Below, piece after piece: positions 26,159 through 47,437 of a DNA stretch of 64,000 bases; position 1 is the first letter of the stretch; every line of letters begins with the position of its first letter. This stretch comes from Actinomycetes bacterium (GTDB taxonomy: Bacteria > Actinomycetota > Acidimicrobiia > Acidimicrobiales > RAAP-2): the NCBI GenBank assembly GCA_021844425.1, contig JAKBTL010000042.1:2133-66132 (forward strand). Reading direction: 5' to 3'. A program made the translations under genes and the position numbers. The notes below the pieces were generated by a model, which saw nothing but the letters and a program-made list of their open reading frames with translations, did no database searches and was not told the DNA's origin.

Positions 26159-27801
26159 CGACCGAGGTCCCGCCGGACGGGACGGCAGGCGGCCACGACC
26201 TGCCTGGTGGCCGGGAGCCCGGGGGCCGGGCCCCCGGGGGCCGCGCGTGGAGCGCCCCGCTCATGGGCCGTGCCGAGGAGCCGACGCTCTTCGAGCTCTC
26301 AGAGCCGGGTCGGCACAGCTGGCAGCTCCGCACGACGGGCGTTCCGGAGTGGAGCGCCGAAGAGCTCCTCCCCGCCGCGCACCGCCGGCACGAGCCTGTG
26401 CCGCTCGCCGAGGTGTCCGAACGGGACCTCGTCGCACATTTCACGCGCCTTTCGCACCGGCAGTTCTCGGTCGACCTCGGCGCCTACCCGCTCGGGTCGT
26501 GCACGATGAAGTACAACCCGAAGGTCTGCGACACGGTGGCCTCGTTGCCGGGGCTGGCCGGGGTGCACCCCGCCGCCCCCGCACAGATGAGCCAGGGGTG
26601 GCTCGCACTGCTCGTCGAGCTCGAGGAGGCGCTGTGCGCGGTCACCGGCATGGCCGCCGCGACCTTCCAGCCTGCTGCCGGCGCGGCGGGCGAGCTGACG
26701 GGGCTGCTTCTCATGCGGGCGTACCACGAGGCGAGGGACGACAGGCGCCGGCGCGTGATCATCCCGGACTCGGCCCACGGCACGAACCCGGCCTCGGTCA
26801 GGATCGGTGGCTACGAGGTGACCACGGTGCCGTCGGACGACCGGGGTTGCGTCGACCTGGCCGCGCTGCGCTCGGTGCTCGACCGCGACGTCGCGGGGAT
26901 CATGCTCACGAACCCGAACACGCTGGGGCTCTTCGAGGAGGGCATCGAGGAGATCGCAGCCGCCGTCCACGACGTGGGCGGTCTCCTCTACTACGACGGC
27001 GCGAACCTGAACGCGATCCTCGGCGTCGTGCGCCCTGGGGACATGGGGTTCGACATCGTCCACCTGAACCTGCACAAGACCTTCGCCACGCCGCACGGCG
27101 GCGGCGGCCCCGGCGCAGGGCCTGTCGCGGTCGGCGAGCACCTGGTGGACTTCCTCCCCGGACCTCGCCCGGTCCGGCTCCTCCACGAAGCACAGGAGAG
27201 CGCGGCGTCGAACGGCACGGGTGCCGCCGCGTACGGCTGGGCGATGCCGCCGCGCTCGATCGGGCGAGTCCACTCCTGGCACGGCAACGCGCTCGTGCTC
27301 GCCCGCGCGCTCACCTACATCCGCGTCCACGGCGGCGACGGGCTGCGCCGGGTCGCCGAGCGTGCGGTGTTGAACGCGAACTGGCTGCGCGCCCGGCTCT
27401 CGTCCGCCTACGACGTGCCGTTCGACCGGCCGTGCATGCACGAGGCGGTGCTCGCTGCCTCCACGCTGAAGCGCCGCTACGGCGTACGTGCGCTCGACGT
27501 GGCCAAGCGGCTGCTCGAAGAAGGGTTCCACGCGCCGACCGTCTACTTCCCTCTGGTGGTGGACGAGGCGCTCATGGTGGAGCCGACCGAGACCGAGAGC
27601 CTCCAGACGCTCGAAGCTCTCGCCGACGCGTTCGAGCGGATCGCCACCGACGCGGCTGAGCCGGCGGGCGCCGAGGCCGCGCACGCCGCACCCCGCACGA
27701 CGCCGGTCGGTCGTCTCGACGAGGCGCGTGCAGCCCGGGTGCTCGTACCGACCTTCGACGCACGCGCGGACGTCGGGAAGCAAGGAGCGTCAGGGCCCTA
27801 G
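26155..27801 (+). CDS. gcvPB: Glycine dehydrogenase (decarboxylating) subunit 2
   Basis: GSCTMKYNPK, SAHGTNPAS, and the PLP-lysine context NLHKTF. The start overlaps the gcvPA stop; internal Met MGRAEEP is an alternative. Confidence 0.9.
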   Translation: MTTEVPPDGTAGGHDLPGGREPGGRAPGGRAWSAPLMGRAEEPTLFELSEPGRHSWQLRTTGVPEWSAEELLPAAHRRHEPVPLAEVSERDLVAHFTRLSHRQFSVDLGAYPLGSCTMKYNPKVCDTVASLPGLAGVHPAAPAQMSQGWLALLVELEEALCAVTGMAAATFQPAAGAAGELTGLLLMRAYHEARDDRRRRVIIPDSAHGTNPASVRIGGYEVTTVPSDDRGCVDLAALRSVLDRDVAGIMLTNPNTLGLFEEGIEEIAAAVHDVGGLLYYDGANLNAILGVVRPGDMGFDIVHLNLHKTFATPHGGGGPGAGPVAVGEHLVDFLPGPRPVRLLHEAQESAASNGTGAAAYGWAMPPRSIGRVHSWHGNALVLARALTYIRVHGGDGLRRVAERAVLNANWLRARLSSAYDVPFDRPCMHEAVLAASTLKRRYGVRALDVAKRLLEEGFHAPTVYFPLVVDEALMVEPTETESLQTLEALADAFERIATDAAEPAGAEAAHAAPRTTPVGRLDEARAARVLVPTFDARADVGKQGASGP

Positions 27802-27802
27802 G

Positions 27803-27928
27803 GACTGCTCCACGTGCGGGTTGTGCGCCCTCGCCTGCCCTCCGACAGCGATTGCGTACGACCCGGGTGCTCAGGTGCTCGAGGTGCCGCTTGGCCGGCG
27901 CCCCGGCGCTGCGCAGGTTCGCTGCTGA
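27803..27928 (+). pseudogene. Orphan 4Fe-4S ferredoxin motif without a usable start codon (putative gene remnant)
   Basis: The frame +1 relative to gcvPB reads DCSTCGLCALACPPTAIAYDPGAQVLEV, a complete CxxCxxCxxxCP motif, then stops at 27926-27928. There is no ATG/GTG between the gcvPB stop and the motif, and no second Cys motif. Confidence 0.35.
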
Positions 27929-28064
27929 GCAGTTGCGGTTGTGTGTGCGGCGCGTGATGGCCGCTTCGATCGGGCAGACCGAGCGGCGACCCGAAGTGGG
28001 TGCTGCGACATGCGACCGGAGGTGGGCGGACCGTGGTGCGCCCGGAAGGGAATGGAGGTTCGCG

Positions 28065-28199
28065 ATGCTGGCGGAGATCTTCGGCTTGGACGGCGTGCTG
28101 GTGCTCGTCACCGTCCCGGGGGTGCTCTTCGCGGCACCGGCCATCCCGAAGCTGGCGCGGAACCTCGGGTCGGCGAGGAGCGAGCTCGCAAGGGCCTGA
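28065..28199 (+). CDS. TatA/E-like mini-protein (44 aa), possibly truncated by a frameshift
   Basis: GGAGG lies 7 nt upstream of ATG 28065. The product MLAEIFGLDGVLVLVTVPGVLFAAPAIPKLARNLGSARSELARA has a TM helix plus a (P)KLARNLG hinge/amphipathic start like TatA. See findings for the -1 frame continuation. Confidence 0.45.
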   Translation: MLAEIFGLDGVLVLVTVPGVLFAAPAIPKLARNLGSARSELARA

Positions 28200-28218
28200 A
28201 GGAGTCCGCCGCGGCCAC

Positions 28219-28290
28219 GGATGTGGCCAAGGATGTGGCCAAGGATGTGGCCAAGGATGTGGCCAAGGATGTGGCCAAGGATGTGGCCAA
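28219..28290. repeat. 12-bp perfect tandem repeat x6 (ggatgtggccaa)
   Basis: Read directly. Encodes (DVAK)6 in the frame that continues the TatA-like ORF after a -1 shift. Confidence 0.95.
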
Positions 28291-28370
28291 GGCTGCCGGC
28301 TGGAGCTCCACGCGCACGTCGACTGCAGGTTGGATGGTTCTCGACCTGGACCTCCGGCGTGACGGGAGGT

Positions 28371-28466
28371 GACCGGGCGCACCGGGCGCACCTGGAGCAC
28401 CGGGCGCACCTGGAGCACCGGGCGCACCTGGAGCACCGGGCGCACCTGGAGCACCGGGCGCACCGG
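28371..28466. repeat. 18-bp tandem repeat, about 4.5 copies plus flanking partials (caccgggcgcacctggag)
   Basis: Read directly. Intergenic, about 150 nt upstream of the hydrogenase-like operon. Confidence 0.95.
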
Positions 28467-28559
28467 GCCATCTGGCGCACTAGGACGGTGAGCCCATGCG
28501 ATAACGTGTGACCCGCCAGATGAGTCCCTGGTGGGCCGACGTGCCCGAACTGCTCGCAC

Positions 28560-28586
28560 GGGATGCGGCATCCCGCGCGCGCTAAT
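28560..28586 (+). promoter_or_regulatory. Palindrome gggatgc-g-gcatccc followed by a gctaat (-10-like) hexamer upstream of the operon
   Basis: 15-nt perfect palindrome at 28560-28574. GCTAAT at 28581-28586. GGAGG at 28606-28610, 5 nt before GTG 28616. Confidence 0.25.
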
Positions 28587-28615
28587 GGCCTCTACGCGAT
28601 TGCGTGGAGGCACAT

Positions 28616-29584
28616 GTGACCCCAGGGTTTGCCGTCGTCGCGCCGAAGGCCGTCCAGGCGCTTCAGGTGCTGACGATCGTCGTCGGCGCCCCGCTCGTGA
28701 GCGGGGTGATCTCGCATGTCGAAGCGCGCCTGCAGGGACGGCGTGGCCCTCGGATCCTCCAGCCCTACTACGACCTCGCGAAGCTCTTCCGCAAGGAGAC
28801 GCTCGTCACCGACGAGTCGAGCTGGGTCTTCCTGGCGGCGCCGGTCGTCGCGTTCAGCTGCTACCTGATCGTGCCGCTGCTCATCCCGGTCCTCACGACG
28901 TACCCCCTGCCGCTCGGCTACATGGGCGACATCCTCGGCGGGGGCTTCGTGCTCGCGCTCGGCGGGTTCTCGGTCGCGCTCGCGGCTGCAGAGTCCGGGG
29001 CTCCGTACGCGCAGCTGGGCGCCAGCAGAGCGATGACGTTCGGCGCGCTGGTGGAACCGACGATCCTCTTCGTCGTCTTCGTGGTGGGCCTGATCACCAG
29101 CACCGATCTTCCCTACGCGCTCGCCGGAACCGTCCGCTCGTCGTCGGAGATCGTGCGGCCGGGCCATGTCCTCGCAGCCGTTGCATTCTTCCTCGTGGTG
29201 CTCGTGGACACCGGGCGGATCCCCGTGGAGACCCATACCGGGACCCTTGAGCTCGGCATGATCGACGAGGCGCGCACCCTCGAGCACTCTGGGCCCGCCC
29301 TCGCCCTCTTGCAGTGGGGATCGGCGATGAAGCAGCTGGTCCTCTACACGATCCTCATCAACGTGTTCGTCGCTCCCTTCGGCCTCTCCTCGAACGGCGC
29401 GCCAGGGTCGGTGGTCGGAGCGATCGGCGCGCTCCTCGGCAAGGCCGTGCTCCTCGGGCTCGTCTTCGCGGTGATCGACAACCTGTTCGCCAAGCTGCGG
29501 CTGTACAAGATCCCCGAGTTCCTGGCGGCGGCCTTCGGCATCGCGGTGCTCGCCGTCGTCGTCTTCTACGTGGGTCCTGCGTGA
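28616..29584 (+). CDS. HycD/HyfC (NuoH-like) membrane subunit of a group-4-hydrogenase-related complex
   Basis: The N-terminus QALQVLTIVVGAPLVSGVISHVEARLQGRRGPRILQPYYDLAKLF is collinear with the recalled E. coli HycD N-terminus. GTG 28616 is preceded by GGAGG; GTG 28604 is an alternative. Confidence 0.85.
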   Translation: MTPGFAVVAPKAVQALQVLTIVVGAPLVSGVISHVEARLQGRRGPRILQPYYDLAKLFRKETLVTDESSWVFLAAPVVAFSCYLIVPLLIPVLTTYPLPLGYMGDILGGGFVLALGGFSVALAAAESGAPYAQLGASRAMTFGALVEPTILFVVFVVGLITSTDLPYALAGTVRSSSEIVRPGHVLAAVAFFLVVLVDTGRIPVETHTGTLELGMIDEARTLEHSGPALALLQWGSAMKQLVLYTILINVFVAPFGLSSNGAPGSVVGAIGALLGKAVLLGLVFAVIDNLFAKLRLYKIPEFLAAAFGIAVLAVVVFYVGPA

Positions 29585-30252
29585 TGCCCGTCCACGTCCC
29601 CTCCACCACCGCAGGCGTCGAGGACGTCGTCGCGGTGCTCGTCTTGCTCACCGAGTTCGCGATGCTGCGGGGTCCGCTCCTGCGCTCCCAGGTGCGCCTG
29701 TACGCGTTCCAGTCGCTCGCGGTGAGCGTGCTCGCCGTCGTCGTCGCCGCGACGAGGCACCTGGCGGACATCTACGCGCTCGCCGGGCTCTCCTTCGTCT
29801 TGAAGGTGGTGATCGTCCCCGCAGTCATGACGCGGCTGCTCCGAGACGTCGACGTCGACCTCGCCGGCAGCTCGAAGCTGGGCGTGGCCAGCTCCATGCT
29901 GGTGGCGCTGGCGGTGTCGGTCTTCGGCTTCTTCGCCGTCGGGTCTCTCCACGTCCACTCCTCGCTCCTGCCGTCGACGACGCTGGCGGTCGCGTCCGCG
30001 GTCGTGCTGGTCGCCTTCGTGCTGATCGTGCTGCGCTCCGACGTGGTCTCCCAGGCGATGGGGTTCTTCTCGCTCGAGAACGGCGTGTCGATCGCGGGCC
30101 TGGTGATCGCCGCGGGGCTGCCGCTCGTCGTCGAGACGACGTTCCTCTTCGACCTGCTCGTCGCGGTGGTGGCCTTCGGGATCATCATCCGCGTCCATCA
30201 CGGCCGATCGAGGACCCTGTCCACCGACGAGCTCGACAGGCTGCGCGGGTAG
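29584..30252 (+). CDS. HyfE/HycP-like small membrane subunit
   Basis: 222 aa, polytopic. ATG 29584 overlaps the upstream stop (TGATG). Size and position match HyfE/mycobacterial HycP. Confidence 0.75.
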   Translation: MPVHVPSTTAGVEDVVAVLVLLTEFAMLRGPLLRSQVRLYAFQSLAVSVLAVVVAATRHLADIYALAGLSFVLKVVIVPAVMTRLLRDVDVDLAGSSKLGVASSMLVALAVSVFGFFAVGSLHVHSSLLPSTTLAVASAVVLVAFVLIVLRSDVVSQAMGFFSLENGVSIAGLVIAAGLPLVVETTFLFDLLVAVVAFGIIIRVHHGRSRTLSTDELDRLRG

Positions 30253-30260
30253 GAGGAGAG

Positions 30261-31811
30261 ATGGCTGCCTTGCTCGTCGTGCTGCTCGCCTTCCCGTTCG
30301 CCGTGGGCGTGGTTTCCTACCTGGTGCCGGTGCGGGTCTCCAAGGTCCTCGCGCCCGTGTCAGGGGCAGTCGCGTTCGCCCTCTCGATTGCCCTCGTGCC
30401 GGCGGTCCTCACCCACGGCCACATCACCGCAGGAAGCGAGCTGCGGGTCGACTCGCTGTCCGTGGTGTTCTTGATCGCCACCTCGTTCCTCTACCTCGCG
30501 ACCGCGATCTTCTCGGCGGGGTACCTGCATCTCGACAGCGGCCCGGCAGGCGCCCGCTACGGCCGGCGCTTCTACGCCGGCCTGAACGTCTTCTGCTGGG
30601 CGATGCTCGCCGCGCCGCTCGTGAGCGGTCTCGCGCTGCTGTGGGTCGCGATCGAGGTCACGACGGTGGTCTCCGCGCTGCTCGTCGCGATCGACGACAC
30701 CGAGACGGCGACCGAGGCTGCGTGGAAGTACGTGCTGATCGCCTCGATGGGGCTCGGCATCAGCCTGCTCGCGACGATCGTGCTCTACTACGCGGGGACC
30801 TCCGTCTTCGGGGCGGGCTACGACCTCTCGTACGCGAAGATGCTCGCAGCGGGGCACCACCTTCCCCCTGAGGTGCTGCGGCTCGCGTTCGTGCTCGCAG
30901 TGCTCGGCTACGGGACGAAGATGGGCCTCGTACCGGTGCACACGTGGCTTCCCGACGCGCACTCCGAAGCCCCGACCCCGGTGTCCGCGCTGCTCTCGGG
31001 GGCGCTGCTTGCGACCAGCTTCTACGCGATCCTCCGGTACTACCAGATCACGGCCGCGGCGATCGGCTCCGTCTTCCCTCGCAACGTCCTGCTGGTCTTC
31101 GGCCTCGCCTCCCTTCTTCTCGCGGCGCTCTACCTGCTGCGTCAGCGCGACATCAAGCGGATGCTCGCCTACTCGAGCATCGAGCACATGGGCGTCCTCG
31201 CCATCGGGGTGAGCTTCGGGGTGACGCTCGCGTTCATCGGCGTCCTCCTCCACGTCCTCGCGCACGCCGCCGCGAAAGGCACCGCCTTCTTCGGGGCGGG
31301 CTCGGTCGTGCGCAAGTTCGGGACGAAGGACATGGCGCTCGTGCGTGGAGGGGTGGGCGCGCTGCCATGGAGCGGCTCGATGCTCGTTGCCGCGGTGCTC
31401 GCCCTCTCCGCCATGCCGCCGTTCGGCCTGTTCAGGAGCGAGTTCCTCATCGTCTCAGGTGGGCTCTCCGATCCGCGCTACGCGGTCGCGGCGGTGCTCG
31501 TGGTCCTCGTGACGCTCGCCTTCGTGGGCCTCGGGTGGTCGACCACGCAGACCATGCTCACGACGGGGCCCGCGGACGCCGCGCTCGCCGCGGCGCCGCA
31601 CGCGACCCCGCACACCCCGCACGCCCCGCACGCCCCGCACGCCCCGCACGCCGCTGTCGTGTCATCTCGCGTGCGAAAAGGCGAGGTGAGCCCGTGGATC
31701 GTCCTCGCGATGGCGCTCGGCATCGCGGCGTTGGTGCTTCTCGGTGTCCACCTGCCTGCCGACCTCAGCAGGCTGCTCGACCATGCGGCGCACGAGCTGA
31801 GGACACCGTGA
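30261..31811 (+). CDS. HyfF/HycQ-like antiporter-type (NuoM/N, MrpD family) subunit
   Basis: AGGAGGAGAG directly upstream. Canonical motifs VHTWLPDAHSEAPTPVSALLSG, AYSSIEHMG, HVLAHAAAKG. PHA repeat near the C-terminus. Confidence 0.88.
   Translation: MAALLVVLLAFPFAVGVVSYLVPVRVSKVLAPVSGAVAFALSIALVPAVLTHGHITAGSELRVDSLSVVFLIATSFLYLATAIFSAGYLHLDSGPAGARYGRRFYAGLNVFCWAMLAAPLVSGLALLWVAIEVTTVVSALLVAIDDTETATEAAWKYVLIASMGLGISLLATIVLYYAGTSVFGAGYDLSYAKMLAAGHHLPPEVLRLAFVLAVLGYGTKMGLVPVHTWLPDAHSEAPTPVSALLSGALLATSFYAILRYYQITAAAIGSVFPRNVLLVFGLASLLLAALYLLRQRDIKRMLAYSSIEHMGVLAIGVSFGVTLAFIGVLLHVLAHAAAKGTAFFGAGSVVRKFGTKDMALVRGGVGALPWSGSMLVAAVLALSAMPPFGLFRSEFLIVSGGLSDPRYAVAAVLVVLVTLAFVGLGWSTTQTMLTTGPADAALAAAPHATPHTPHAPHAPHAPHAAVVSSRVRKGEVSPWIVLAMALGIAALVLLGVHLPADLSRLLDHAAHELRTP
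31596..31652. repeat. 9-bp tandem repeat, about 5-6 copies (ccccgcacg; PHAPHAPHAPHA)
   Basis: Read directly. In-frame in the HyfF-like gene. Confidence 0.85.
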
Positions 31812-33388
31812 ACGACGCCATGAAGACGTTGTGGTCATCGGCGCACGCGCAGCCAGCAGACGCCGAGGATGCGGGGGATGTCGCGGTCTTCCCTTCCACG
31901 CGCCAGCGCGTCGCCGCCGGCGCGCGCTTCTGCGGGCTCTTCGAGGGCTTCCGAGGCGCGGGCTCCCCAGGCGAGGGATCCCCAGGCGAGGGCTTCCGAG
32001 GTGCCGCCGGCGCGGCGCTGCTCGCGGTGGTGTCGTCGGAGGGAACGCTGTTCGTCGAAGAGGCGCGTCTCGACGCGGGGCGGAGGCCCAGGTACGAGTC
32101 GCTCACCCCGGCGACCCCGGCCGCAGGCTGGTACGAGCGGCGCCTGCGCGACCTGTTCGGCATCGAGCCGCTCGGCCACCCGCGGCTCGACCCGCTCTCC
32201 TTCCCCGTGCCCGCAGGCAGCGCCGCGCCGCGGGGGATCGGAGGCGACCCGATGGTCCCGATGACCCCCGACCCGAGCCCCCTGCCGGCGCACGTCCACG
32301 GCGAGGGCGTGTTCACCCTTCCCTACGGCCCGGTCCGCTCGGGCGTGTTCGAGGCCGTCGAGTACCTGGTGGAGACGTCGGGCGAGGACATCTCGCACCT
32401 CCGGACGCGCATCTTCTACAAGCACCGGGGGATCGAGGCGCGCTTCTGCGGCCTGGGCGTCGCGGACGGCGTGCTGCTCGCCGAGCGCGTCGAGGGCGTG
32501 GCGTCCGTCGCGCACGCCGTCGCCTTCAGCCAGGCGATCGAGCAGATCGGCGACGTCGCGGTCCCGCTCGAGGCGCAGCTCGTCCGCGTCGTGCACGCCG
32601 AGCTCGAGCGTGTCGCGAACCACCTGGACACCATGGTCCGCCACACCGAGGCGGCGGGACAGGCGGTGGCCTACGCCGTGCTCTCGCACCACAAGGAGCG
32701 GGTCCAGCGGCTCCGGGCACGGCTTTCCGGCAGCCGCTTCGGAAGGGGGGTGGTCGTGCCGGGCGGTGTCATCAGGCCGCTGCGGCTCCGCCCGTCAGAG
32801 GTGCTGGCGACCCTGACCTCGCTCGAGCGGGAGATCGACGAGGACGTCCGCCGGCTGATGGACACCCCGTCCTTCGTGGACAGGCTGCGGGGGACCGGAG
32901 TGCTCGCGCATAGCGACGCGCGCCGGTTCGCGGTCGTCGGCCCGGTCGGGAGGGCCTCGGGGCAGTCGGAGGACGTCCGCACCAGCCGTCCCTACGGCGC
33001 CTACCAGCGTCTCGGGCAGCGGATCTTCGAACCCCACGAAGAGGGCGACGCCTTGGCGCGCCAACGCGTCCGCATCGCCGAGATCGCCGGCGCGTTCCAC
33101 CTGGTGCGCCAGGCGGTCGACCTGCTCGACGAGCTCGGGGAGCCGCAGCGCTGGCGTGCCGGTGTCCCTGCGGTGACCGGCCGGTCGATCGGGTGGGCGG
33201 AGGCGCCGCAAGGCGAGCTGCTCTACGTCGTCGAGGCGGCCGAGGGGCGCCTCGTGCAGGTGAGCCAGCGCTCCGCGTCGTTCCACAACCTCGCCGCGTA
33301 CCCGGCGGCCTTCCCGAAGGACATCTTCACCGACGTGGCCTTCATCGAGGCCAGCTTCGGGCTCTCGATCGCAGGGGCGGCCGGCTGA
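31808..33388 (+). CDS. HycE-like NuoC-NuoD fusion ('large subunit') lacking NiFe cysteine ligands
   Basis: GTG 31808 overlaps the upstream stop; ATG 31820 is an alternative. NuoC-like WYERRLRDLFGIEPLGHP. NuoD/HycE-like LPYGPVRSG...RIFYKHRGIE...ERVEGVASVAH. C-terminus FIEASFGLSIAGAAG. Confidence 0.85.
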   Translation: MNDAMKTLWSSAHAQPADAEDAGDVAVFPSTRQRVAAGARFCGLFEGFRGAGSPGEGSPGEGFRGAAGAALLAVVSSEGTLFVEEARLDAGRRPRYESLTPATPAAGWYERRLRDLFGIEPLGHPRLDPLSFPVPAGSAAPRGIGGDPMVPMTPDPSPLPAHVHGEGVFTLPYGPVRSGVFEAVEYLVETSGEDISHLRTRIFYKHRGIEARFCGLGVADGVLLAERVEGVASVAHAVAFSQAIEQIGDVAVPLEAQLVRVVHAELERVANHLDTMVRHTEAAGQAVAYAVLSHHKERVQRLRARLSGSRFGRGVVVPGGVIRPLRLRPSEVLATLTSLEREIDEDVRRLMDTPSFVDRLRGTGVLAHSDARRFAVVGPVGRASGQSEDVRTSRPYGAYQRLGQRIFEPHEEGDALARQRVRIAEIAGAFHLVRQAVDLLDELGEPQRWRAGVPAVTGRSIGWAEAPQGELLYVVEAAEGRLVQVSQRSASFHNLAAYPAAFPKDIFTDVAFIEASFGLSIAGAAG

Positions 33389-34239
33389 TGCCCTGGATCC
33401 CCCGCGGCCTGCGTCACGGCATCGTGACGAGCGGCTACCCGAAGCGTCCCGACGGGTACGGTCCCGGCTTCTTCGGGCACGTCGAGGTCGCGCCCGCCCG
33501 CGGCGACGGTCCCGAGGCGCTCGCCCGCGGCGACGGTCCCGAAGCGCTCGCCGCGGCGGTGGACGAGTGCCCCACCGGCGCGATCACGTTCGACGGCGAC
33601 GTGGTGCGGCTGGACCGCGGGCGGTGCATCCTGTGCGGCCGCTGCGTGGCGCTCGCCCCGTCGACGTTCCGTGCCGACCCGGGCTTCGAGACGGCTGGCC
33701 ACGGCCGGCGCGCGCTCGTGGTGCCGGCGGCCGAGGACGACGACGCGGCGCTGGCGGAGACCCGGGCGCGGCTCGCCCGGCGGGTCCGCGGGCTGCGCCG
33801 CTCCGTCCACGTCCGTCATGTCGACGCCGGATCGGACGGCGCAGAGGAGTGGGAGGTGGCGGCGCTGACCAATCCCGTCTACGACGTCCAGCGCCTCGGG
33901 GTCTTCTTCACCGCGAGCCCCAAGCACGCGGACGTGCTGCTCGTCACCGGCATCGGCACGGCGGGCATGGAGTCCCCGCTCCGCCAGACCTACGACCTGA
34001 TGCCCGAGCCCAAGGTGGTGGTCGCCGCCGGGGTCGACGCCGCGAGCGGCGGCATGGTGCATGCGGGCTACGCCGCGCGCGGCGGGGTTGCCGGGTTCAT
34101 CCCCGTGGACGTGTACGTCCCGGGCTCCCCGCCGAGTCCCTTCGGCATCCTCCACGGCATCTTGGAGGCTGTGGGGATCCTCGGCTCGCGCCGGCACATC
34201 GGCGCGGAGGGCCCGAAGGATGAGGCGGGCGCCCGATGA
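33388..34239 (+). CDS. Ferredoxin-like domain fused to a NuoB/HycG-like 'small subunit' lacking cluster cysteines
   Basis: ATG 33388 overlaps the upstream stop. N-terminal ECPTGAI...CILCGRCVALAP. The C-terminal part is collinear with HycG (PVYDVQRLGVFFTASPKHADVLLVTG, PEPKVVVAAG, PVDVYVPGSPPSP). Confidence 0.85.
   Translation: MPWIPRGLRHGIVTSGYPKRPDGYGPGFFGHVEVAPARGDGPEALARGDGPEALAAAVDECPTGAITFDGDVVRLDRGRCILCGRCVALAPSTFRADPGFETAGHGRRALVVPAAEDDDAALAETRARLARRVRGLRRSVHVRHVDAGSDGAEEWEVAALTNPVYDVQRLGVFFTASPKHADVLLVTGIGTAGMESPLRQTYDLMPEPKVVVAAGVDAASGGMVHAGYAARGGVAGFIPVDVYVPGSPPSPFGILHGILEAVGILGSRRHIGAEGPKDEAGAR
33497..33550. repeat. 27-bp tandem repeat x2 (ARGDGPEAL x2)
   Basis: Read directly. In-frame, with one substitution. 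Confidence 0.9.
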
Positions 34240-36392
34240 CCGCCGCGCTCATCGTGGCCGCGCTCGCCTGTCTGCTCGCCGGCGCTGCGGTCGACCTGGG
34301 TCTCGGGACGCGCTGGGCCATGGTGCGCGCGCTGCCATACCTGCTCGGCGCTGTAGGCAGCGCCTGTCTGCTCGCGGTCGGGATCCACGCGACGCTCTCT
34401 CGCACGCCGACCACCATCGGCATCGCGCCGCTCTTCGACGTGGCGCGCGGCGCGTTGCGAGTGGACCCGCTCGCCGGGCTCTTCCTGACGCTCATGTTCG
34501 GGATCGGCCTGGCGGTGTCCTTGTGCTTCGCCTCGTGGGCGTGGTCGGACGCCGGAAGGGCGCACCGCCGAGCGGTCGCGACCGGCTACCTCACGCTCCT
34601 CGCCTCGGTGGCGGTGGTGGTGTGCGCGGCCGACGCGTTCGTCTTCCTCTTCGCCTGGGAGGCGCTGACGGTCTCCTTCTACCTGCTGACGTCGGCGCAG
34701 CGGGGGAGCGAGCGCCAGGCGCGCGCCCCGTGGATCACGGCGGGCATCGGGAAGCTGAGCGGAGCGAGCCTGCTGTTCGGCTTCCTGCTCCTGGCGGGCC
34801 GCACCCACAGCTTGGCGATCGCGAGCTGGTCGCACGTCGGCCCCGGCGGGCTGCACGACGTCGCGTGGGTGCTCCTCCTGGTCGGCTTCGCCGCCAAGCT
34901 CGGCGTGGTGCCGTTGCAGGTCTGGATCCCGGTCGGCTACCCGGCCGCGCCGGGGCCGTCCCGTGCCGCGATGGCGGGGATCGCCGCCAACGTCGGCGTC
35001 TACGGCCTCTGGCGCTTCCTCGGCGTCCTCGGACGACCACCGGTGTGGCTGGTGATCGTCGTCTTGCTTGCCGGAGGGGTCACCGCGTTCCTCGGCATCC
35101 TCTTCGCGGGCGTGCAGTCGCGCCTCAGCCGCGTGGTGGCGTACTCGAGCGTCGAGCAGGCCGGGATCATCCTCGTCGCCTACGGCGTGGCGCTCACCGG
35201 GGTCACCGTCGGCTCGACGACTCTGGAGGTGGTCGGCCTCCTCGCCGCTTCGCTCCAGGTGGTGGCCCACGCCGTCGCGAAGTCCACGGTGTTCTGCTCG
35301 CTCGCGTTCGCCGAAGCCGAAGCGGGGACCGACGACCTCGACGCGCTGCGCGGCGCGGGTCGCCGCCTGCCGTGGAGCGGCGCGGCGTTCGGGGCTGGCG
35401 CCCTGGCGCTCGCGGGGCTCCCGCCGACGATCGGCTTCGTCTCGGAGTGGTTCGTGCTCGAGGCGCTCATGCAGCAGTTCCGTCTGGGGGGGCTCGCGTT
35501 GCGTCTCGGCCTCGCAGGGGCCGGGGCGCTCGTCGCGCTGACCACCGGGCTCGCCGCCCTCGCGTTCGTCCGCGTCCTCGGCCTCACGTTCCTGGGCCGC
35601 CGGATTGACTCGACTGCCTCGGTGTCGGTGTCGGTGTCGCCGTCGTCGGTGTCGCCGTCGTCGGTGTCGCCGGTGTCCGCGTCGGCTGCGCCGGCGTCGA
35701 GTGCGGCGACGCGAGCCGGGGACGCCGGCGTGCTCGGACGGGTCGGTCTCGTCGCGCTGACGCTCGGGTGCCTAGGGATCGCTGCGGCGAGCCCCTGGGA
35801 GGTCCGGTTCCTCGGGCACGGGCTCGCGCCGCTCGTGCCGCGAGCCGGCGTGCTGGGGGCGCTCAAGTCCCCATGGGTGCTCCAGCCCGTCTACCAGGGG
35901 TTCTCCATCCTCTCGCCGTCGTGGCTGTGGGTCGTCCTGCCGTTCGCGTGCGTGGGCGCCTTCGCGATGGCGATGCTCTTGTCGAGGGGGCGCTACGTGC
36001 GGGTCCGCCGGGTGCCGGCGTGGCGCTCCGCCACCGCGGGGGTGGCCGGCCGGTCGTCGTACACGGCGTTCGGTTTCGCGAACCCGCTGCGCCACGTGCT
36101 TGCCAACGTGCTCGCGACGGAGCGGATCCGTCGTGTCCGACCGGTGGTCGCAGGGATGTCCGTCGCGGGCGAGGCGGAGAGCCGTCTGCAAGAGGGAACG
36201 AGCGTCCACGTCGAGTCGGAGACGAGAGTCGTCGAGCCGGTCGAGGCGTACCTCTACCGGCCGGCGTGGAGGCTGGCCGTCGCGGTGGCCGACGCAGCAC
36301 GCCGGCTGCAGTCGGGGTCGCTCAACGCCTACGTTGCCTACATGCTGGTCGCGCTCCTCATCGCGCTCGCGGTCACGGCGGCACTGCGATGA
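34236..36392 (+). CDS. HycC/HyfB-like (NuoL-type) antiporter-like subunit
   Basis: 718 aa. ATG 34236 overlaps the upstream stop (ATGA). AYSSVEQAG, HAVAKS. The C-terminal SYTAFGFANPLRHV region is typical of HycC/HyfB. Confidence 0.85.
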   Translation: MTAALIVAALACLLAGAAVDLGLGTRWAMVRALPYLLGAVGSACLLAVGIHATLSRTPTTIGIAPLFDVARGALRVDPLAGLFLTLMFGIGLAVSLCFASWAWSDAGRAHRRAVATGYLTLLASVAVVVCAADAFVFLFAWEALTVSFYLLTSAQRGSERQARAPWITAGIGKLSGASLLFGFLLLAGRTHSLAIASWSHVGPGGLHDVAWVLLLVGFAAKLGVVPLQVWIPVGYPAAPGPSRAAMAGIAANVGVYGLWRFLGVLGRPPVWLVIVVLLAGGVTAFLGILFAGVQSRLSRVVAYSSVEQAGIILVAYGVALTGVTVGSTTLEVVGLLAASLQVVAHAVAKSTVFCSLAFAEAEAGTDDLDALRGAGRRLPWSGAAFGAGALALAGLPPTIGFVSEWFVLEALMQQFRLGGLALRLGLAGAGALVALTTGLAALAFVRVLGLTFLGRRIDSTASVSVSVSPSSVSPSSVSPVSASAAPASSAATRAGDAGVLGRVGLVALTLGCLGIAAASPWEVRFLGHGLAPLVPRAGVLGALKSPWVLQPVYQGFSILSPSWLWVVLPFACVGAFAMAMLLSRGRYVRVRRVPAWRSATAGVAGRSSYTAFGFANPLRHVLANVLATERIRRVRPVVAGMSVAGEAESRLQEGTSVHVESETRVVEPVEAYLYRPAWRLAVAVADAARRLQSGSLNAYVAYMLVALLIALAVTAALR
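35621..35680. repeat. 6/15-bp tandem repeats (SVSVSVSPSSVSPSSVSPVS)
   Basis: Read directly. In-frame in a loop of the HyfB-like subunit. Confidence 0.85.
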
Positions 36393-36838
36393 GCGCGGCC
36401 GGAGGAGGGCCGCCGCGCGCTCGTGCCTTCCGGCGCATCCTCGTGGGCTACGACGGGTCGAGGGAGGCGCAGGATGCGCTGCGAACCGCGGTCGCGCTGG
36501 CTGAGGAGGTCGACGGCGACGTGCGCGTGCTTCTCGTGGTCCGCCCGCCCGCGCACGTCGAGACGCCCGAGGAGCTCGCGAGTGCCGCGTCGGCCGAACG
36601 CGACAACCTGTCGCAGGGCCTCGAAGCCCTTCTCCGCCCGGGACTCGGGCGAGTGCCCGAGACGCGCGTAGTCTTCGCCGACGACCCCGCCCGCGCGATC
36701 GCGGAGCACGCGGAGGTCCACGGCTTCGACCTCGTCGTCGTGGGGTGCCACGGGCGGGAGCGGGCGACCCACCGCGGCATCGGCCAGGCGCTCGAGTCGC
36801 TGTTGCGGCACCATCCCTGCCCGGTGCTGGTGGTCTGA
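36389..36838 (+). CDS. Universal stress protein (UspA family)
   Basis: ATG 36389 overlaps the HyfB-like stop (ATGA). RILVGYDGSREAQDAL ... DLVVVGCHGR ... GIGQALESLLRHHPCPVLVV. Confidence 0.8.
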   Translation: MSAAGGGPPRARAFRRILVGYDGSREAQDALRTAVALAEEVDGDVRVLLVVRPPAHVETPEELASAASAERDNLSQGLEALLRPGLGRVPETRVVFADDPARAIAEHAEVHGFDLVVVGCHGRERATHRGIGQALESLLRHHPCPVLVV

Positions 36839-36907: not shown

Positions 36908-38815
36908 TCAGCTGCGGGGACCCCGGCCCTGGGGTGCGCCCAGCTCGGTGCTCGAGAGCTGCTCGGCCTGGCGTGCGAGGCACATGGTTCGGGCGCGCTC
37001 GGCTTCTCTCGCCGCCTGCTCGGACTCGGTCGACTCGAGTGCGTGCTGCGCACTCGACGCCGCCGCGATGATGGAGGCCTCGGTCTCCTCGAGCTCTGCG
37101 GTCATCGCGGCGACGAACCGCCGTGACACCGTGTCGAGACGCTGCACGACGTCGAATCGGGCGCGTCCCGCGTGCTTGTCGAGCTCCGAGACGAGCCGTC
37201 GGTGCGCCCGGTCGAGCATCGCACGGCGGGACCGCTCCGTCGGAAGGACCGTCCGAACGGCGCGTGCGAGCGAGGAGCCGGGGCTCTCCACCTGCAAGAA
37301 CAGGTACGAGAAGCGCTCGCGTTGCTCGGCGACCGTCGGGAGGACCGCTTCGGGGAGGTGCACTTCGAAGAGGGCGCTCGCCGCCGTGCGCAGCGACTGG
37401 ACCTGCTGGCGCAGCTTGCCCGCGAACGCTTCCGCGGACCGCGCCCAGCCCTCGTCCGCCGTCTCCTCGACCGCATGGCGCAACGGGTCGAAGGCGTCGG
37501 TGACCGCGCGGTCCACAGCGTCGTCGAGCGCGCGGTCGAGGGCGCGGCCGCGAAGACCTGCCACGGACTCCTCGACGCTGGGCCAGGCACGTCGAGCCAC
37601 CTCGGCCGCGCCTGCGGCGAGCGCGGCGCCCACCGCCTCTGCGATCTGTGCGACGTCGTGGTCGAGCACGAGCCGGCTGGCTGCGAGCTCGCGCCGCACG
37701 TCGTCCGCAGCCGCGCGGAACCGCTCGAGCCGCTCTTTCAGCGCGGCGAGGTCGAAGGTGGCTGCCGCCCGCTCGATGGCGACGGTCTCCGAGAGGGCCG
37801 CGGCCAGCCGGCCGAGCTCCGCGGCGCCTGCCCGCTCTCGCTCGGCGGCGAGGTCGTCGCGCAGGAACGCCTCCAGGTCGCCCCTGAACGCGTCGAAGCC
37901 CGGGTCGCCTGGCGCGCCCGTCCCGCCCGCCTCGCCTGGCGCGCCCGTCCCGCCCGCCTCGCCTGGCGCGCCCGTCCCGCCCGCCTCGCCTGGCGCGCCC
38001 GTCCCGCCCGCCTCGCCTGGCGCGCCCGGAGCGTCGGTCCCGCCCGCCGGGAACAGCGCGTCGAGGGCTCGGCGCGCCGAGAGGAAGTAGACCTCAGCGT
38101 GCTCGCCGAGCAGCCGTGCGAGGTGGCCGCTCAAGTAGCTGCGAACCTCTGCGAGCTCGTGCGCGACGAGGTGGTCGCACTTGTTGACCGCGACGAACAC
38201 CCGTCCGCCGCGGTCGGCGAGATCGGCGAGAAGGCTCTCTTCCTGCTCGGAGAGTGGGGCGTCGACGGACAGGACCACGACCGCTCCGTCGCTGTCGGAG
38301 AGCGCCTCTTTAGCTGCAAGGGTGTGCTGCTCGCTCACCGACGCGACGCCGGGGGTGTCGACGAGCACCACGCCCTGGGCCCCGAGGGGCGTGTCGACGT
38401 GCACCTCGACGCGCCTGACGCCCAGCCGGTTGGCGGGGTTGTCCCGCTCGCTCACGTAGCGCGCGAGCTCGCTCAGAGGAAGCTCGCGGCTCGTGGCGTC
38501 GTCGAAGACCACGCGCAGTCCCGGGTGCGGGTGCGCGAAGTGGACCTCGGTTGCGACGGAGGTGACGGGGACGACGCCCGTGGGGAGGACCGGCGCGCCG
38601 ATCAGGGCGTTCACGAGCGTGGACTTGCCGCGTTTGAACTCGCCGAGCACCGCGATGTGGTAGCGCTGGGCCTCGGAGCGCTCCGCGAGCCGCAGTGCTC
38701 GCTCGGCGAACGCGGCTGGCTGGTCCCCGAGCGCAGCCATCTCACGGGCGAGCGACGCGACCGTCGTGCTCGGTCGTGGGCTGGCTGGCATAGGTTCCTC
38801 CCGCCGGTGCTGCAC
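36908..38815 (-). CDS. Bacterial dynamin-like GTPase
   Basis: G1 GEFKRGKST, G3 LVDTPG, G4 NKCD. Long alpha-helical Ala/Arg/Glu-rich stalk. ATG 38791 is an alternative start. Confidence 0.8.
   Translation of the reverse strand: MQHRREEPMPASPRPSTTVASLAREMAALGDQPAAFAERALRLAERSEAQRYHIAVLGEFKRGKSTLVNALIGAPVLPTGVVPVTSVATEVHFAHPHPGLRVVFDDATSRELPLSELARYVSERDNPANRLGVRRVEVHVDTPLGAQGVVLVDTPGVASVSEQHTLAAKEALSDSDGAVVVLSVDAPLSEQEESLLADLADRGGRVFVAVNKCDHLVAHELAEVRSYLSGHLARLLGEHAEVYFLSARRALDALFPAGGTDAPGAPGEAGGTGAPGEAGGTGAPGEAGGTGAPGEAGGTGAPGDPGFDAFRGDLEAFLRDDLAAERERAGAAELGRLAAALSETVAIERAAATFDLAALKERLERFRAAADDVRRELAASRLVLDHDVAQIAEAVGAALAAGAAEVARRAWPSVEESVAGLRGRALDRALDDAVDRAVTDAFDPLRHAVEETADEGWARSAEAFAGKLRQQVQSLRTAASALFEVHLPEAVLPTVAEQRERFSYLFLQVESPGSSLARAVRTVLPTERSRRAMLDRAHRRLVSELDKHAGRARFDVVQRLDTVSRRFVAAMTAELEETEASIIAAASSAQHALESTESEQAAREAERARTMCLARQAEQLSSTELGAPQGRGPRS
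37905..38027. repeat. 27-bp perfect tandem repeat, about 4.6 copies (GAPGEAGGT units) inside the dynamin-like gene
   Basis: tcgcctggcgcgcccgtcccgcccgcc repeated from 37905. In-frame. Confidence 0.95.
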
Positions 38816-38851
38816 CTCGACAGGAGCTATCAGCCGTGATGGCGGTCGGTG

Positions 38852-38982
38852 GCGAGCTCCATCGCCGACGTCAGTCTACGTCTTCGGCACCGCGCACCGG
38901 CGATGCAGGCAGGCTCCACAGGCCCGGCCCCGTGCGACGCGCGACTCGGTAGGATCATGCAAGGAACGGCGATGGAGCTCGC
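38852..38982. promoter_or_regulatory. Perfect 15-bp inverted repeat pair (gcgagctccatcgcc / ggcgatggagctcgc) in the divergent promoter region
   Basis: Arms at 38852-38866 and 38968-38982, 101 nt apart, between the dynamin-like and MutS-like genes. Confidence 0.5.
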
Positions 38983-39077
38983 TGCACCGCCCTCGGGCCG
39001 CACCGGCCTCGGGCTGATGGCTCCTACTGACCGCTGGCGGCCTTCGGCCGCGATGCCGGCGAGAAGGGGAGTGGTGC

Positions 39078-47124: not shown

Positions 47125-47235
47125 GTCGGGGAGCCCGGCCGGATGGCCGCGTCTGGACCCTCTAGGGCCCAGGCGACGGGCCGTCACATTCTGACATAAT
47201 GGCCCTTATCGGCGGTTTCGAGAGATCGCTCCGAG

Positions 47236-47320
47236 CTCCTCCGGGGCCTGCTCCTCCGGGGCCTGCTCCTCCGGGGCCTGCTCCGCCGGGGCCTGCTCCT
47301 CCGGGGCCTGCTCCGGCGGG
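47236..47320. repeat. 15-bp tandem repeat, about 5.5 copies (ctcctccggggcctg)
   Basis: Read directly. Intergenic, upstream of ppa. Confidence 0.95.
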
Positions 47321-47327
47321 CTTCGGC

Positions 47328-47437
47328 GGGCGGGCCTCTGCCGCCGGGCCTCCCCGGGCGGGCCTCTGCCGCCGGGCCTCCCCGGGCGGGCCTCTGCCGT
47401 CGGGCCTCCCCGGGCGGGCCTCTGCCGTTGGGCCTCC
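47328..47437. repeat. 28-bp tandem repeat, about 3.9 copies (gggcgggcctctgccgccgggcctcccc)
   Basis: Read directly. Intergenic; ends about 50 nt before the ppa start. Confidence 0.95.

Follow-up and report, generated by a model that had tools for sequence, protein, structure and literature searches.

The name Ehr (energy-converting hydrogenase-related) was reportedly coined for Geobacter sulfurreducens GSU0739-0745 and is said to have been generalised by Marreiros et al. in 2013. Ehr complexes have no ligands for a NiFe site and their function is unknown (PMC6349859, PMC10284858, PMC4378227); they are also described in PMC8691401, and all four papers define the class by its large subunit only. 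Escherichia coli formate hydrogenlyase (FHL, Hyd-3; PDB 7Z0S; PMC9474812) provides the closest solved sequences for both halves of the small subunit considered here, as well as for its HycD- and HycE-like partners. In E. coli, HycF, with two clusters and a Cys4 metal site, and HycG, with one cluster, are separate proteins. The complex I subunits NuoI (clusters N6a and N6b) and NuoB (cluster N2) and the cyanobacterial subunits NdhI and NdhK (PMC7021789) have homologous folds and occupy the same architectural position. The Pyrococcus furiosus complexes MBH (MbhN/MbhJ, PDB 6CFW) and MBS (MbsN/MbsJ, PDB 6U8Y) share the group-4 architecture and the Mrp-like membrane subunits, while Mrp cation/proton antiporters have in common two MrpA/MrpD-like subunits with a conserved set of Glu and Lys residues.

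The stretch of 64,000 nucleotides that we analysed (the window) contains, on the plus strand, six contiguous genes that match the Ehr set. They encode a HycD/NuoH-like membrane subunit (28604-29584; Pfam NADHdh; HycD 7z0s_D, E 2.6e-36), a HyfE-like membrane subunit (29584-30252; NCBIfam hydrogenase 4 membrane subunit, E 2.3e-24 and below the curated cutoff, with synteny in 80 loci), a HyfF/NuoM-N-like antiporter-type subunit (30261-31811; Pfam Proton_antipo_M and alignment to MbhH and NuoM), a NuoC+NuoD/HycE-like large subunit without NiFe ligands (31820-33388; Pfam and alignment to HycE), the small subunit on which we focus (33388-34239) and, as the last gene of the core, a HyfB/NuoL-like antiporter-type subunit (34236-36392; Pfam and an NCBIfam hydrogenase 4 subunit B-like match, E 2e-106, below the curated cutoff). 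A universal stress protein gene (36389-36838, plus strand; Pfam Usp, E 1.5e-27) overlaps the stop of the HyfB-like gene, and in many related loci such a gene comes after the operon. The six-gene operon is conserved across Actinomycetota, recurring in 80 of 80 genome loci as far as the contigs extend, and relatives occur in at least 490 species genomes. Neither the operon nor the scanned window genes include FdhF, HycB, NuoEFG or hyp genes, and the conserved neighbours in 41 loci likewise include no maturation genes and none for the electron-input partners FdhF and HycB.

In the large subunit, alignment to HycE places Glu225, Ala228, Ser512 and Leu515 at the NiFe cysteine positions; among 77 homologues these residues are found in 77, 66, 76 and 57, respectively. 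The motifs L1 (RxCGxCxxxH) and L2 (DPCxxCxxH/R) read RVEGVASVAH and IEASFGLSIAG, so that both CxxC NiFe motifs are missing, as in described Ehr complexes. Since the NiFe ligands have been lost from the large subunit too, the complex is a six-subunit membrane Ehr, with group-4 [NiFe] hydrogenases as its ancestors. It keeps the coupling elements of its superfamily: the beta1-beta2 loop Glu of the large subunit (E178, 77/77, with E510 likewise 77/77), the loop and channel acids E151, E209, E216 and E222 of the HycD/NuoH-like subunit, and the antiporter-like Glu/Lys pairs, with E132, K220, H335, K339 and E394 conserved in the HyfF/NuoM-N-like subunit and E142, K221, H345, K349, E404 and E409 in the HyfB/NuoL-like one. 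Unlike E. coli FHL, this operon has no NiFe site, HycB or FdhF; unlike complex I, the complex has no N2 cluster, tandem-Cys motif, quinone-site Tyr in the large subunit, or input module for NADH or ferredoxin. MBH and MBS keep three clusters, the catalytic site and extra Mrp subunits that are not seen here. Of the full MrpA-G set, only MrpA/D-like subunits were recognised in the operon, alongside NuoH-, NuoD- and NuoB-like ones, and these last three, together with an Fe-S cluster, are what Mrp antiporters lack.

The small subunit is a protein of 283 amino acids whose ATG (33388) overlaps the stop of the upstream gene (ATGA) and whose TGA (34237-34239) overlaps the next start. In it, a ferredoxin subunit of the HycF/NuoI type and a HycG/NuoB-type subunit are joined end to end. 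This bears out the first-pass annotation, which had proposed a NuoB/HycG-like protein fused to a ferredoxin domain. Both of the Pfam families that it had named were matched: Oxidored_q6 (PF01058) at residues 154-260 (E 1e-19, 70.9 bits, cutoff 27) and single-cluster Fer4 models, above their cutoffs, at residues 73-101. The NCBIfam matches all fall far short of the curated cutoffs. Among solved proteins, E. coli HycG comes closest (7z0s_G, E 3.8e-32), and Foldseek matches the AlphaFold2 model to HycG, MbhJ and NuoB (E 6e-13), MbhJ being the best structural match for the NuoB-like domain (TM 0.77). Confidence in that model is moderate overall (mean pLDDT 69); the surroundings of the Cys motifs are the best-predicted stretch of the N-terminal domain (pLDDT 78-92). 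The HycF/NuoI-like domain spans residues 1-105 (33388-33702), and a profile of the N-terminal 108 residues covers the whole of HycF (profile 1-97 against 7z0s_F residues 1-103, E 9.7e-24) and also matches MbhN, NdhI, NuoI and Nqo9. With E. coli FHL the protein shares the NuoB fold and the N-terminal extension of HycF, kept among homologues as MPWIPRGLR.GIVT..YPRRPDGY; it differs in being fused, in having no HycF C-terminal extension and in retaining ligands for one of three clusters. The core of the HycG/NuoB-like domain lies at about residues 139-262 (33802-34173). The sequence carries the motifs VDAGSDGAEEWE, AAGVDAASGG, VPGSPPSP, AAAVDECP and CILCGRCVALAP, just as the first-pass annotation had given them.

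What is left of the three clusters? Where a 2x[4Fe-4S] ferredoxin would have two CxxCxxCxxxCP motifs with eight cysteines, this protein has the Cys-Pro of motif 1 and the CxxCxxC of motif 2, namely Cys61-Pro62 (33568-33573), Cys80 (33625-33627), Cys83 (33634-33636) and Cys86 (33643-33645), together spanning 33568-33645. The first three cysteines of motif 1 are replaced by a variable linker; within this degenerate region lies an in-frame 27-bp tandem duplication (33490-33558, ARGDGPEAL in 2.6 copies; Tandem Repeats Finder), an insertion that is missing in 112 of 121 homologues. The four cysteines are invariant in 121/121 close homologues and in 81/81 loci (the window and 80 species-level genome loci), and in a 25-sequence alignment reaching down to 21% identity they and Met1 are the only invariant columns. 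There is no further conserved Cys column; at position 90, where motif 2 has lost its final Cys, 20/121 close homologues still have one. Against both eight-Cys relatives and HycF, Cys61-Pro62 aligns with the last Cys-Pro of motif 1, and Cys80, Cys83 and Cys86 with the first three cysteines of motif 2. In 2x[4Fe-4S] ferredoxins the motifs are cross-ligated, the last Cys of motif 1 and the first three of motif 2 holding one cubane; by this rule and these positions, the four residues are predicted to bind a single [4Fe-4S] cluster. The claim that the surviving cysteines are exactly one cluster's ligand set thus stands, the alignment giving one set rather than a division between cluster sites. Their conservation among homologues likewise agrees with the accompanying proposal of selective retention over random decay, neither of the two refuting outcomes named in that annotation having been seen, and theirs is the only partial ferredoxin pattern in our tally of relatives. 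The counterpart of the set among the NuoI clusters is most likely the medial N6b (F2 in FHL), which would sit at the interface of the fused domains. This assignment follows from relatives that combine four ferredoxin cysteines with a NuoB cluster, which need a contiguous wire; it also uses the Thermus thermophilus ligand assignments.

The vacated site in the NuoB-like domain has not simply decayed. All four Cys ligands of the proximal (N2/G1-type) [4Fe-4S] cluster are absent, as the first-pass annotation had recognised, yet the residues it read in their place (Ala, Asp, Asp and Ser) need correction. Columns 150, 153, 217 and 247 are Cys in 66/66 Cys-retaining relatives, so the ligand positions are occupied here by Asp150 (33835-33837), Glu153 (33844-33846), Asp217 (34036-34038) and Ser247 (34126-34128). 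Two of the four positions had been mis-assigned; position 147 is Ala in Cys-retaining and Cys-less relatives alike. Among 121 homologues the replacements are conserved as D150 in 121, E/D153 in 119, D217 in 119 and S247 in 117, with D150 also present in 81/81 loci (the window and 80 genome loci), and this conservation speaks for a remodelled rather than a decayed site. Kept carboxylates or Ser fill most of the vacated ligand positions of the complex: D150, E153, D217 and S247 in the small subunit, joined by E225 and S512 of the large one. In sum, the complex is without Cys for the NiFe site, the proximal cluster and the outer ferredoxin cluster.

The relatives form a series, from eight ferredoxin and four NuoB cysteines, through four and four, to four and none. 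In a tally of two-domain representatives at 50% identity, confined to the well-aligned categories, the partial ferredoxin set is accompanied by an intact NuoB cluster in 13 cases and lacks one in 17. The NiFe cysteines are missing from the large subunits of all individually inspected loci; in the metagenome tabulation most large subunits lack them, with Cys at the two N-terminal positions in 10/80 loci. One relative (P0257/L083) has the gene order HyfB-HycD-HyfE-HyfF-L-S, which we take to be that of the Geobacter Ehr, and encodes the same one-cluster small subunit with a Cys-less NuoB-like part. The six genes here, NuoL-like, NuoH-like, HyfE-like, NuoM/N-like, large and small, are those of described Ehr complexes, but an Ehr small subunit in the form of a HycF-HycG fusion is not described in PMC6349859, PMC10284858, PMC4378227 or PMC8691401. 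Nor do these Ehr papers contain the stepwise loss of clusters, the Asp/Glu/Asp/Ser replacement or a link to fluoride riboswitches, Marreiros 2013 and Coppi 2005 lying outside the comparison.

That link emerges from the gene neighbourhood. Two fluoride riboswitches (RF01734, both at Rfam gathering score) lie 2.4 kb downstream of the window operon, in front of neighbouring genes: one (38814-38875, minus strand, 39.4 bits) precedes a dynamin-family GTPase gene (36908-38815, minus strand; Pfam Dynamin_N), and the other (38959-39033, plus strand, 38.5 bits) precedes two MutS-domain-V ATPase genes (39078-40664 and about 40652-42235; Pfam MutS_V). Upstream of the window operon itself no riboswitch was found by Rfam at E <= 1, nor with filters off. 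In seven orthologous loci RF01734 passes the Rfam gathering score directly 5' of the first operon gene, and our own riboswitch model gives same-strand matches at most 125 nt upstream in 17/59 loci, with two more recognised by eye. Any riboswitch match occurs in 38/86 cluster-less loci versus 3/74 Cys-retaining ones (Fisher p about 1e-9). Because three Cys-retaining Ehr operons carry the riboswitch as well, cluster loss and fluoride control are correlated but not identical. Around the orthologous operons lie genes for CrcB, DUF190, enolase and USP as well as mutS-like genes; CrcB is encoded in 15/80 neighbouring regions, DUF190 in 21/80 and enolase in 10/80. Both 'formate hydrogen lyase' and mutS are classic genes associated with the crcB motif (PMC2864571, PMC11139923), and genes annotated as formate hydrogenlyase under this riboswitch have been taken as real and read as a shift to fermentation (PMC2864571; PMC11139923, citing Baker et al. 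2012).

Based on these observations we propose, with a probability of roughly 0.6, that this one-cluster Ehr complex makes no H2 and is most likely an ion mover under fluoride stress, its cubane being structural or regulatory. The complex would then be a fluoride-inducible, non-hydrogenase ion translocator, and a Mrp-like role in pH homeostasis is plausible. As there is no redox centre beside the lone cubane, electron wiring to the old active-site pocket is probably impossible. The most likely role of the cubane is to stabilise both the ferredoxin fold and the head of the complex, and it may also report redox state. The complex would move H+, possibly Na+ or K+, across the membrane and so help to manage pH and membrane potential when influx of HF acidifies the cell, with the acidic remodelled head as part of the ion path or its gate. 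Several observations sit uneasily with parts of this proposal. A head of 800 residues is not obviously needed by a secondary transporter, the window operon has no riboswitch upstream, and among orthologous loci only about one in three carries one immediately before the operon. Three strictly conserved carboxylates where a cluster was once buried, and the likewise conserved beta1-beta2 loop Glu, are not explained by a purely structural head and suggest that it still binds a metal or carries out chemistry. A distinctly unlikely extension is that the remodelled head is no relic but a new kind of active site for fluoride chemistry, with the lone cubane as redox gate. Asp150, Glu153, Asp217 and Ser247, together with Glu225, Glu178 and Glu510 of the large subunit, would bind protons or a hard cation (perhaps Mg2+, Ca2+ or Fe), and the head might sense Mg-F species and gate ion pumping; alternatively, protons from the membrane arm might turn F- into HF, which would leave via the old gas or quinone tunnel. 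If true, a complex I scaffold would here host chemistry other than redox, broadly as cyanobacterial NDH-1MS does in hydrating CO2.

Could the complex still be a pump driven by redox chemistry? The cubane would be reduced by ferredoxin or another soluble donor of low potential, and Asp150, Glu153, Asp217 and Ser247 would hold a metal or relay leading to a substrate in the old NiFe pocket; the relay metal, having no Cys ligands, would be Fe, Mn or similar, and the pocket would be lined by Glu225, Glu178 and Glu510. The vacated positions are indeed kept as hard-metal ligands rather than hydrophobic residues, neither the coupling loops nor the beta1-beta2 Glu vary, and the window contains a 2-oxoacid:ferredoxin oxidoreductase gene. 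Sister Ehr complexes, moreover, keep a two- or three-cluster wire to the same pocket without NiFe, implying that the wider family uses a redox substrate other than hydrogen. However, we know of no precedent for a carboxylate/Ser site relaying electrons in place of an N2 or proximal cluster, no partner oxidoreductase gene is conserved beside the operon, and its conserved neighbours are fluoride-stress genes and not redox enzymes; we regard such a pump as unlikely, though with an appreciable chance. Reduction of menaquinone, the quinone of Actinobacteria, by the retained cluster in the manner of complex I would suit the homology to NuoB, NuoD, NuoH, NuoL and NuoM throughout, but it is highly improbable given the missing N2 cluster, the Gly at the quinone-binding Tyr position of the RxxG/Y motif in the large subunit, the operon without NuoEFG and the position of the retained cluster, which by the geometry of complex I would be too far from the cavity.

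Two readings of the annotation and of the fold fare no better. That the ferredoxin domain is a cofactor-less remnant, its four cysteines binding Zn or forming disulfides that stabilise the fold, is very unlikely: half of the ferredoxin ligands are gone and the mean pLDDT is modest, but the CP...CxxCxxC spacing is exactly that of the ferredoxin fold, the residues align column for column with eight-Cys relatives and HycF, their surroundings are the best-predicted part of the domain, single-cluster 4Fe-4S models pass their Pfam cutoffs, and stable disulfides are unlikely in a cytoplasmic protein. Taken literally, the source name 'Ni,Fe-hydrogenase III small subunit/ferredoxin' would make the protein part of a hydrogenase 3 or formate hydrogenlyase producing H2 from formate, in line with E. 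coli FHL subunits as the best solved relatives and with the name used in the riboswitch literature (PMC2864571, PMC11139923). The chance of this is virtually nil: the cysteines of the NiFe site (E225, A228, S512 and L515 here) and of the proximal cluster are gone, which refutes a hydrogenase identity at the sequence level, FdhF, HycB and hyp genes are absent from the operon and the scanned window genes, and the NCBIfam matches fall far under their curated cutoffs.

What are the implications of a one-cluster Ehr complex? In the fluoride literature since 2010, 'formate hydrogen lyase' has been listed among the commonest riboswitch-controlled genes and read as a fermentation switch. The complex descends from hydrogen-producing enzymes but has lost the NiFe site, so that the 'formate hydrogen lyase' tied to fluoride stress is not a hydrogenase; in Actinomycetota at least, such genes cannot encode one. 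Related to both complex I and hydrogenases, Ehr complexes are widespread and have no assigned function; a probably fluoride-inducible member in culturable hosts, for which Streptantibioticus parmotrematis, Leifsonia aquatica and Mycobacterium sp. pUA109 are candidates, offers a concrete phenotype for testing what they do. Finally, in the series from three clusters to two to one, with vacated sites turned into conserved carboxylates, nature has experimented with the head of the complex I scaffold, revealing which of its parts are needed for assembly and coupling once electron transfer has been dispensed with.

The gene at 33388–34239 on the forward strand encodes the small subunit of an energy-converting hydrogenase-related (Ehr) complex, a fusion of a HycF/NuoI-type ferredoxin domain with a HycG/NuoB-type domain. 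The frame runs from an ATG at 33388 to a stop codon at 34237–34239, with ATGA overlaps that couple it translationally at both ends; the window has a G+C content of ~72% and contains Pup-proteasome genes, which mark it as actinobacterial. The nearest genome locus belongs to an uncultured ‘Actinomycetes bacterium’ MAG (87% protein identity). Pfam places Oxidored_q6 (NuoB) on residues 154–260 (E 1e-19) and single-cluster 4Fe-4S models on residues 73–101, while in NCBIfam the NuoB-family matches fall far under curated cutoffs and HycF/HyfH are matched weakly over residues 8–93. The top sequence match among solved structures is E. coli HycG (7z0s_G, E 3.8e-32), and as a single sequence the protein matches HycF weakly at its N-terminus. 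A 108-residue N-terminal profile built from 25 diverse family members spans HycF from end to end (E 9.7e-24) and also matches MbhN, MbsN, NdhI, NuoI and Nqo9. The AlphaFold2 model is moderate overall (mean pLDDT 69, pTM 0.58), with both domain cores at 78–93, and a Foldseek search with it retrieves HycG, MbhJ and NuoB (E 6e-13; TM 0.77 to MbhJ).

What has this protein kept of its iron-sulfur ligands? Cys61, Cys80, Cys83 and Cys86 are present in 121 of 121 homologues and in all 81 sequences formed by the window and 80 genome loci. Only these four columns and Met1 are invariant in an alignment that descends to 21% identity and includes relatives with eight cysteines. Cys61-Pro62 is in register with the motif-1 Cys-Pro of these 8-Cys relatives, and Cys80/83/86 with their first three motif-2 cysteines. 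In ferredoxins of the 2x[4Fe-4S] type, the cluster bound by the first three cysteines of motif 2 takes its fourth ligand from the motif-1 Cys-Pro; by this cross-ligation rule and the observed register, the four residues make up one ligand set, and it is likely that they bind a [4Fe-4S] cluster. The first-pass annotation, whose quoted motifs all occur in the protein exactly as given, had argued that the surviving cysteines are a single cluster's ligands; the proposal is borne out both by their invariance among homologues and by the alignment with 8-Cys relatives, which assigns them to the same site. The stretch that held the first three motif-1 cysteines varies in length and sequence among homologues. 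In the window a 27-bp in-frame tandem duplication (33490–33558, ARGDGPEAL, 2.6 copies) lies precisely within this stretch, an insertion missing from 112 of 121 homologues. Because of this window-specific duplication, a pairwise phmmer comparison of the N-terminal domain with HycF put the Cys-Pro out of register, and the profile alignment was used instead. Short in-frame tandem repeats look like a genome-wide habit, for neighbouring genes contain many more: the HyfF-like protein ends in a His-Ala-Pro run (31576–31654), and there are a GEGSP repeat at the large-subunit N-terminus (31942–32001), Ser/Val/Pro repeats in the HyfB-like protein (35619–35707) and a collagen-like GAPGEAGGT repeat (27 bp x 4.9) in a dynamin-like gene (37898–38028).

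The proximal-cluster site of the NuoB-type domain has been vacated. We searched exhaustively with HMMER and aligned the top 150 representatives at 50% identity; 66 of them carry cysteine at four columns equivalent to positions 150, 153, 217 and 247, which the window protein occupies with Asp150, Glu153, Asp217 and Ser247. These columns revise the ligand residues of the first-pass annotation (Ala, Asp, Asp, Ser) to Asp, Glu, Asp, Ser; the misassignment arose from counting the first cysteine of E. coli VDCGGCNGC, which the family at large does not use as a ligand, and position 147 is alanine in Cys-retaining and Cys-less groups alike. The 121 close homologues have D150 throughout, Glu/Asp153 in 119, D217 in 119 and S247 in 117, and D150 recurs in 81 of 81 sequences from the window and the species-level genome loci. 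Drift does not account for such replacements.

The small subunit is the fifth gene of a six-gene operon that begins with HycD/NuoH-like (28604–29584), HyfE-like (29584–30252) and HyfF-like (30261–31811) genes and a NuoC+NuoD/HycE-like large subunit (31820–33388), and closes with a HyfB-like gene (34236–36392), followed by a universal stress protein gene. This order is kept in all 80 retrieved genome loci, and at least 490 species genomes match; the loci are mostly from Acidimicrobiales, with others from Leifsonia aquatica, Streptantibioticus parmotrematis, Mycobacterium sp., Acidothermus and Pseudonocardiaceae. Aligned to HycE, the large subunit has Glu225, Ala228, Ser512 and Leu515 at the NiFe ligand positions (E225 in 77, A228 in 66, S512 in 76 and L515 in 57 of 77 homologues). 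Since Ehr complexes are defined as group-4-like complexes whose large subunit is without the NiFe cysteines (PMC6349859, PMC10284858, PMC4378227, PMC7304191), the window complex is an Ehr by every criterion tested, and its identity is near certain. The defining features of [NiFe] hydrogenases, formate hydrogenlyase (FHL), complex I and Mrp were not found in it; it is a member of none of these, nor does it demonstrably work like any of them. FdhF, HycB, NuoEFG and hyp genes are absent from the operon, the scanned window genes and the conserved neighbours, and no conserved redox partner occurs among the flanking genes of 41 loci. Shortly before the operon come the glycine cleavage genes gcvH, gcvT, gcvPA and gcvPB (13767–14156 and 23691–27801), with no glycine riboswitch beside them at the Rfam gathering score; in three other loci (L001, L006, L015) the operon likewise follows gcvPB. 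M. tuberculosis Rv0082-87 goes under the name of a putative hydrogenase in the literature.

Judged by its residues, the coupling machinery is intact, with roles taken as given for E. coli FHL (PMC9474812). The beta1-beta2 loop glutamate E178 (HycE E193) and the canopy acid E510 (HycE Asp529) are present in 77 of 77 large subunits, and the canopy arginine (HycE R478) is Gln at residue 464 in 71 of 77. The HycD-like subunit conserves the NuoH-type loop (R205, E209, H211, E216, E222) and the channel glutamate E151, with other HycD channel residues changed (Y102 to F, R108 to G, E130 to A). Both antiporter-like subunits conserve the TM5 Glu, TM7 Lys, TM11 His/Lys and TM12 Glu.

The relatives of the small subunit form a graded series of cluster loss. 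Among representatives at 50% identity having both domains, about 18 combine a full ferredoxin ligand set with four NuoB-type cysteines, a figure made up of 9 canonical 8-Cys proteins and 9 scored as four plus the last cysteine, the latter read as having the non-canonical motif-1 spacing seen in P0162. Thirteen retain only the Cys61/80/83/86-type set in the ferredoxin domain together with four NuoB-type cysteines, 17 retain that set with no NuoB-type cysteine and one has eight ferredoxin cysteines with none in the NuoB columns; retention of the other cluster's set alone was found in none of the well-aligned categories. Genomic context was viewed for one example per type. P0162 (8 + 4) and P0147 (4 + 4) adjoin large subunits without NiFe cysteines (RVSAVG / RLAGVS), and P0257 (4 + DTDN) lies in the order HyfB-HycD-HyfE-HyfF-large-small, which we take to be that of the Geobacter Ehr. 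One locus, L050, has paralogous cluster-less and Cys-retaining Ehr operons, the second (12400–16746, reverse strand) encoding a small subunit with four NuoB-type cysteines (SCAACE / GACPLGG / PGCPP) and a large subunit without NiFe ligands; second operons also occur in L033, L036 and L044. The 4 + 4 forms would give a contiguous wire only if the kept ferredoxin cluster neighbours the NuoB cluster. N6b of T. thermophilus Nqo9 is presumably bound by Cys63 and Cys98/101/104, which fits a kept set beside the NuoB cluster. The clusters follow one another as N6a-N6b-N2 (PMC7021789, PMC8577454).

Two fluoride riboswitches (RF01734) lie downstream of the operon. The one at 38814–38875 on the reverse strand (Rfam, 39.4 bits) faces a dynamin-family GTPase gene (36908–38815, reverse strand), and that at 38959–39033 on the forward strand (38.5 bits) faces two tandem MutS-domain-V ATPase genes (39078–40664 and about 40652–42235). 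This trio recurs beside the operon elsewhere, dynamin-like genes in 11 and MutS-like genes in 9 of 41 loci. An inorganic pyrophosphatase gene, a classic fluoride target and frequent riboswitch-associated gene, stands 8 kb downstream of the riboswitches (47195–48007, forward strand), with no aptamer detected beside it. The region 5' of the window operon (27802–28603) gave only noise with Rfam at E <= 1 and with our own covariance model, filters off; the operon thus adjoins riboswitch-controlled genes and is not itself demonstrably riboswitch-controlled. Its 800-nt leader holds a 12-mer x 6.7 array (28213–28292), an 18-mer x 4.8 array (28379–28464) and a small ORF (28066–28200), TatA-like by eye and with no Pfam match. 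In seven other loci, an aptamer at the Rfam gathering score lies on the operon strand directly 5' of the HycD-like gene: L015, L077, L080 (Mycobacterium sp.), L062, L070 (Streptantibioticus), L060 (Acidothermus) and L075. Our own covariance model was built from seven hits. Of the 59 loci whose upstream sequence is long enough, 17 have same-strand matches to it 0–121 nt before the operon (two more by eye); divergent matches lie within 2 kb in 14 loci, and 36 of 80 loci have one match or more. Within 8 kb of the operon are found CrcB fluoride channels (15/80 loci), DUF190 (21/80), enolase (10/80) and histidine phosphatase (11/80), as well as USP and NUDIX genes. A contrast sample of 80 metagenome loci, retrieved with a Cys-retaining query, has aptamer matches in five, two of them cluster-less and three among 74 Cys-retaining loci. 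Any match occurs in 38 of 86 cluster-less versus 3 of 74 Cys-retaining loci (Fisher p about 1e-9), and a match directly upstream in 21 of 61 versus 2 of 28 (p 0.008), figures that are indicative only, since the two samples come from different sources and their contigs are not of like length. The aptamer is strongly enriched with the cluster-less type, not absolutely: three Cys-retaining metagenomic operons with an upstream aptamer (L087, 3105–3178; L100, 1430–1483; L105, 34–105) rule out an exclusive link and extend it beyond the cluster-less subfamily. The second Ehr operon of L044 has its own upstream aptamer (7186–7257).

Ehr complexes are already known, as is the association of the riboswitch with ‘FHL’. 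The crcB motif paper names mutS and ‘formate hydrogen lyase’ as typical downstream genes (PMC2864571), and a 2024 review still explains the latter link by a shift of metabolism towards fermentation (PMC11139923). In the papers that we read we did not find a small subunit fused in this way and reduced to exactly one set of ligands, the replacement by conserved carboxylates, the 3-2-1 cluster series, or the identification of the fluoride-linked ‘FHL’ of Actinomycetota as a cluster-poor Ehr; earlier descriptions of each are possible.

How might such a complex work? We propose that the four cysteines hold one [4Fe-4S] cubane where the two fused domains meet. Standing without neighbouring clusters, it would offer no electron wire to the old pocket, a gap that we take, from complex I and hydrogenase geometry, to exceed 14 A by far. 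The role that asks least of it would be to hold the ferredoxin fold, which in turn may use the conserved N-terminal extension to clamp the head to the membrane arm; a further task of the cubane may be to report redox state. The main alternative, which we think unlikely, is that the head is still redox-active, with a metal bound without cysteine ligands at the Asp/Glu/Asp/Ser site, and it is very improbable that the acidic head acts directly on fluoride or HF chemistry. A 2-oxoacid:ferredoxin oxidoreductase alpha-type gene (6259–8235, forward strand; POR_N, POR, PFOR_II) could supply the organism with reduced ferredoxin. To the reading that we favour, an Ehr with a single cluster and an ion-moving role, we give a probability of about 0.6. 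Na+/H+ antiporters are the next commonest riboswitch-associated class after fluoride exporters (PMC11139923), which fits the physiological role proposed here, itself held with moderate confidence: the complex would transport protons, which it may exchange for Na+ or K+, and would thereby counter HF-driven acidification and keep up the membrane potential on which fluoride export by CrcB depends.
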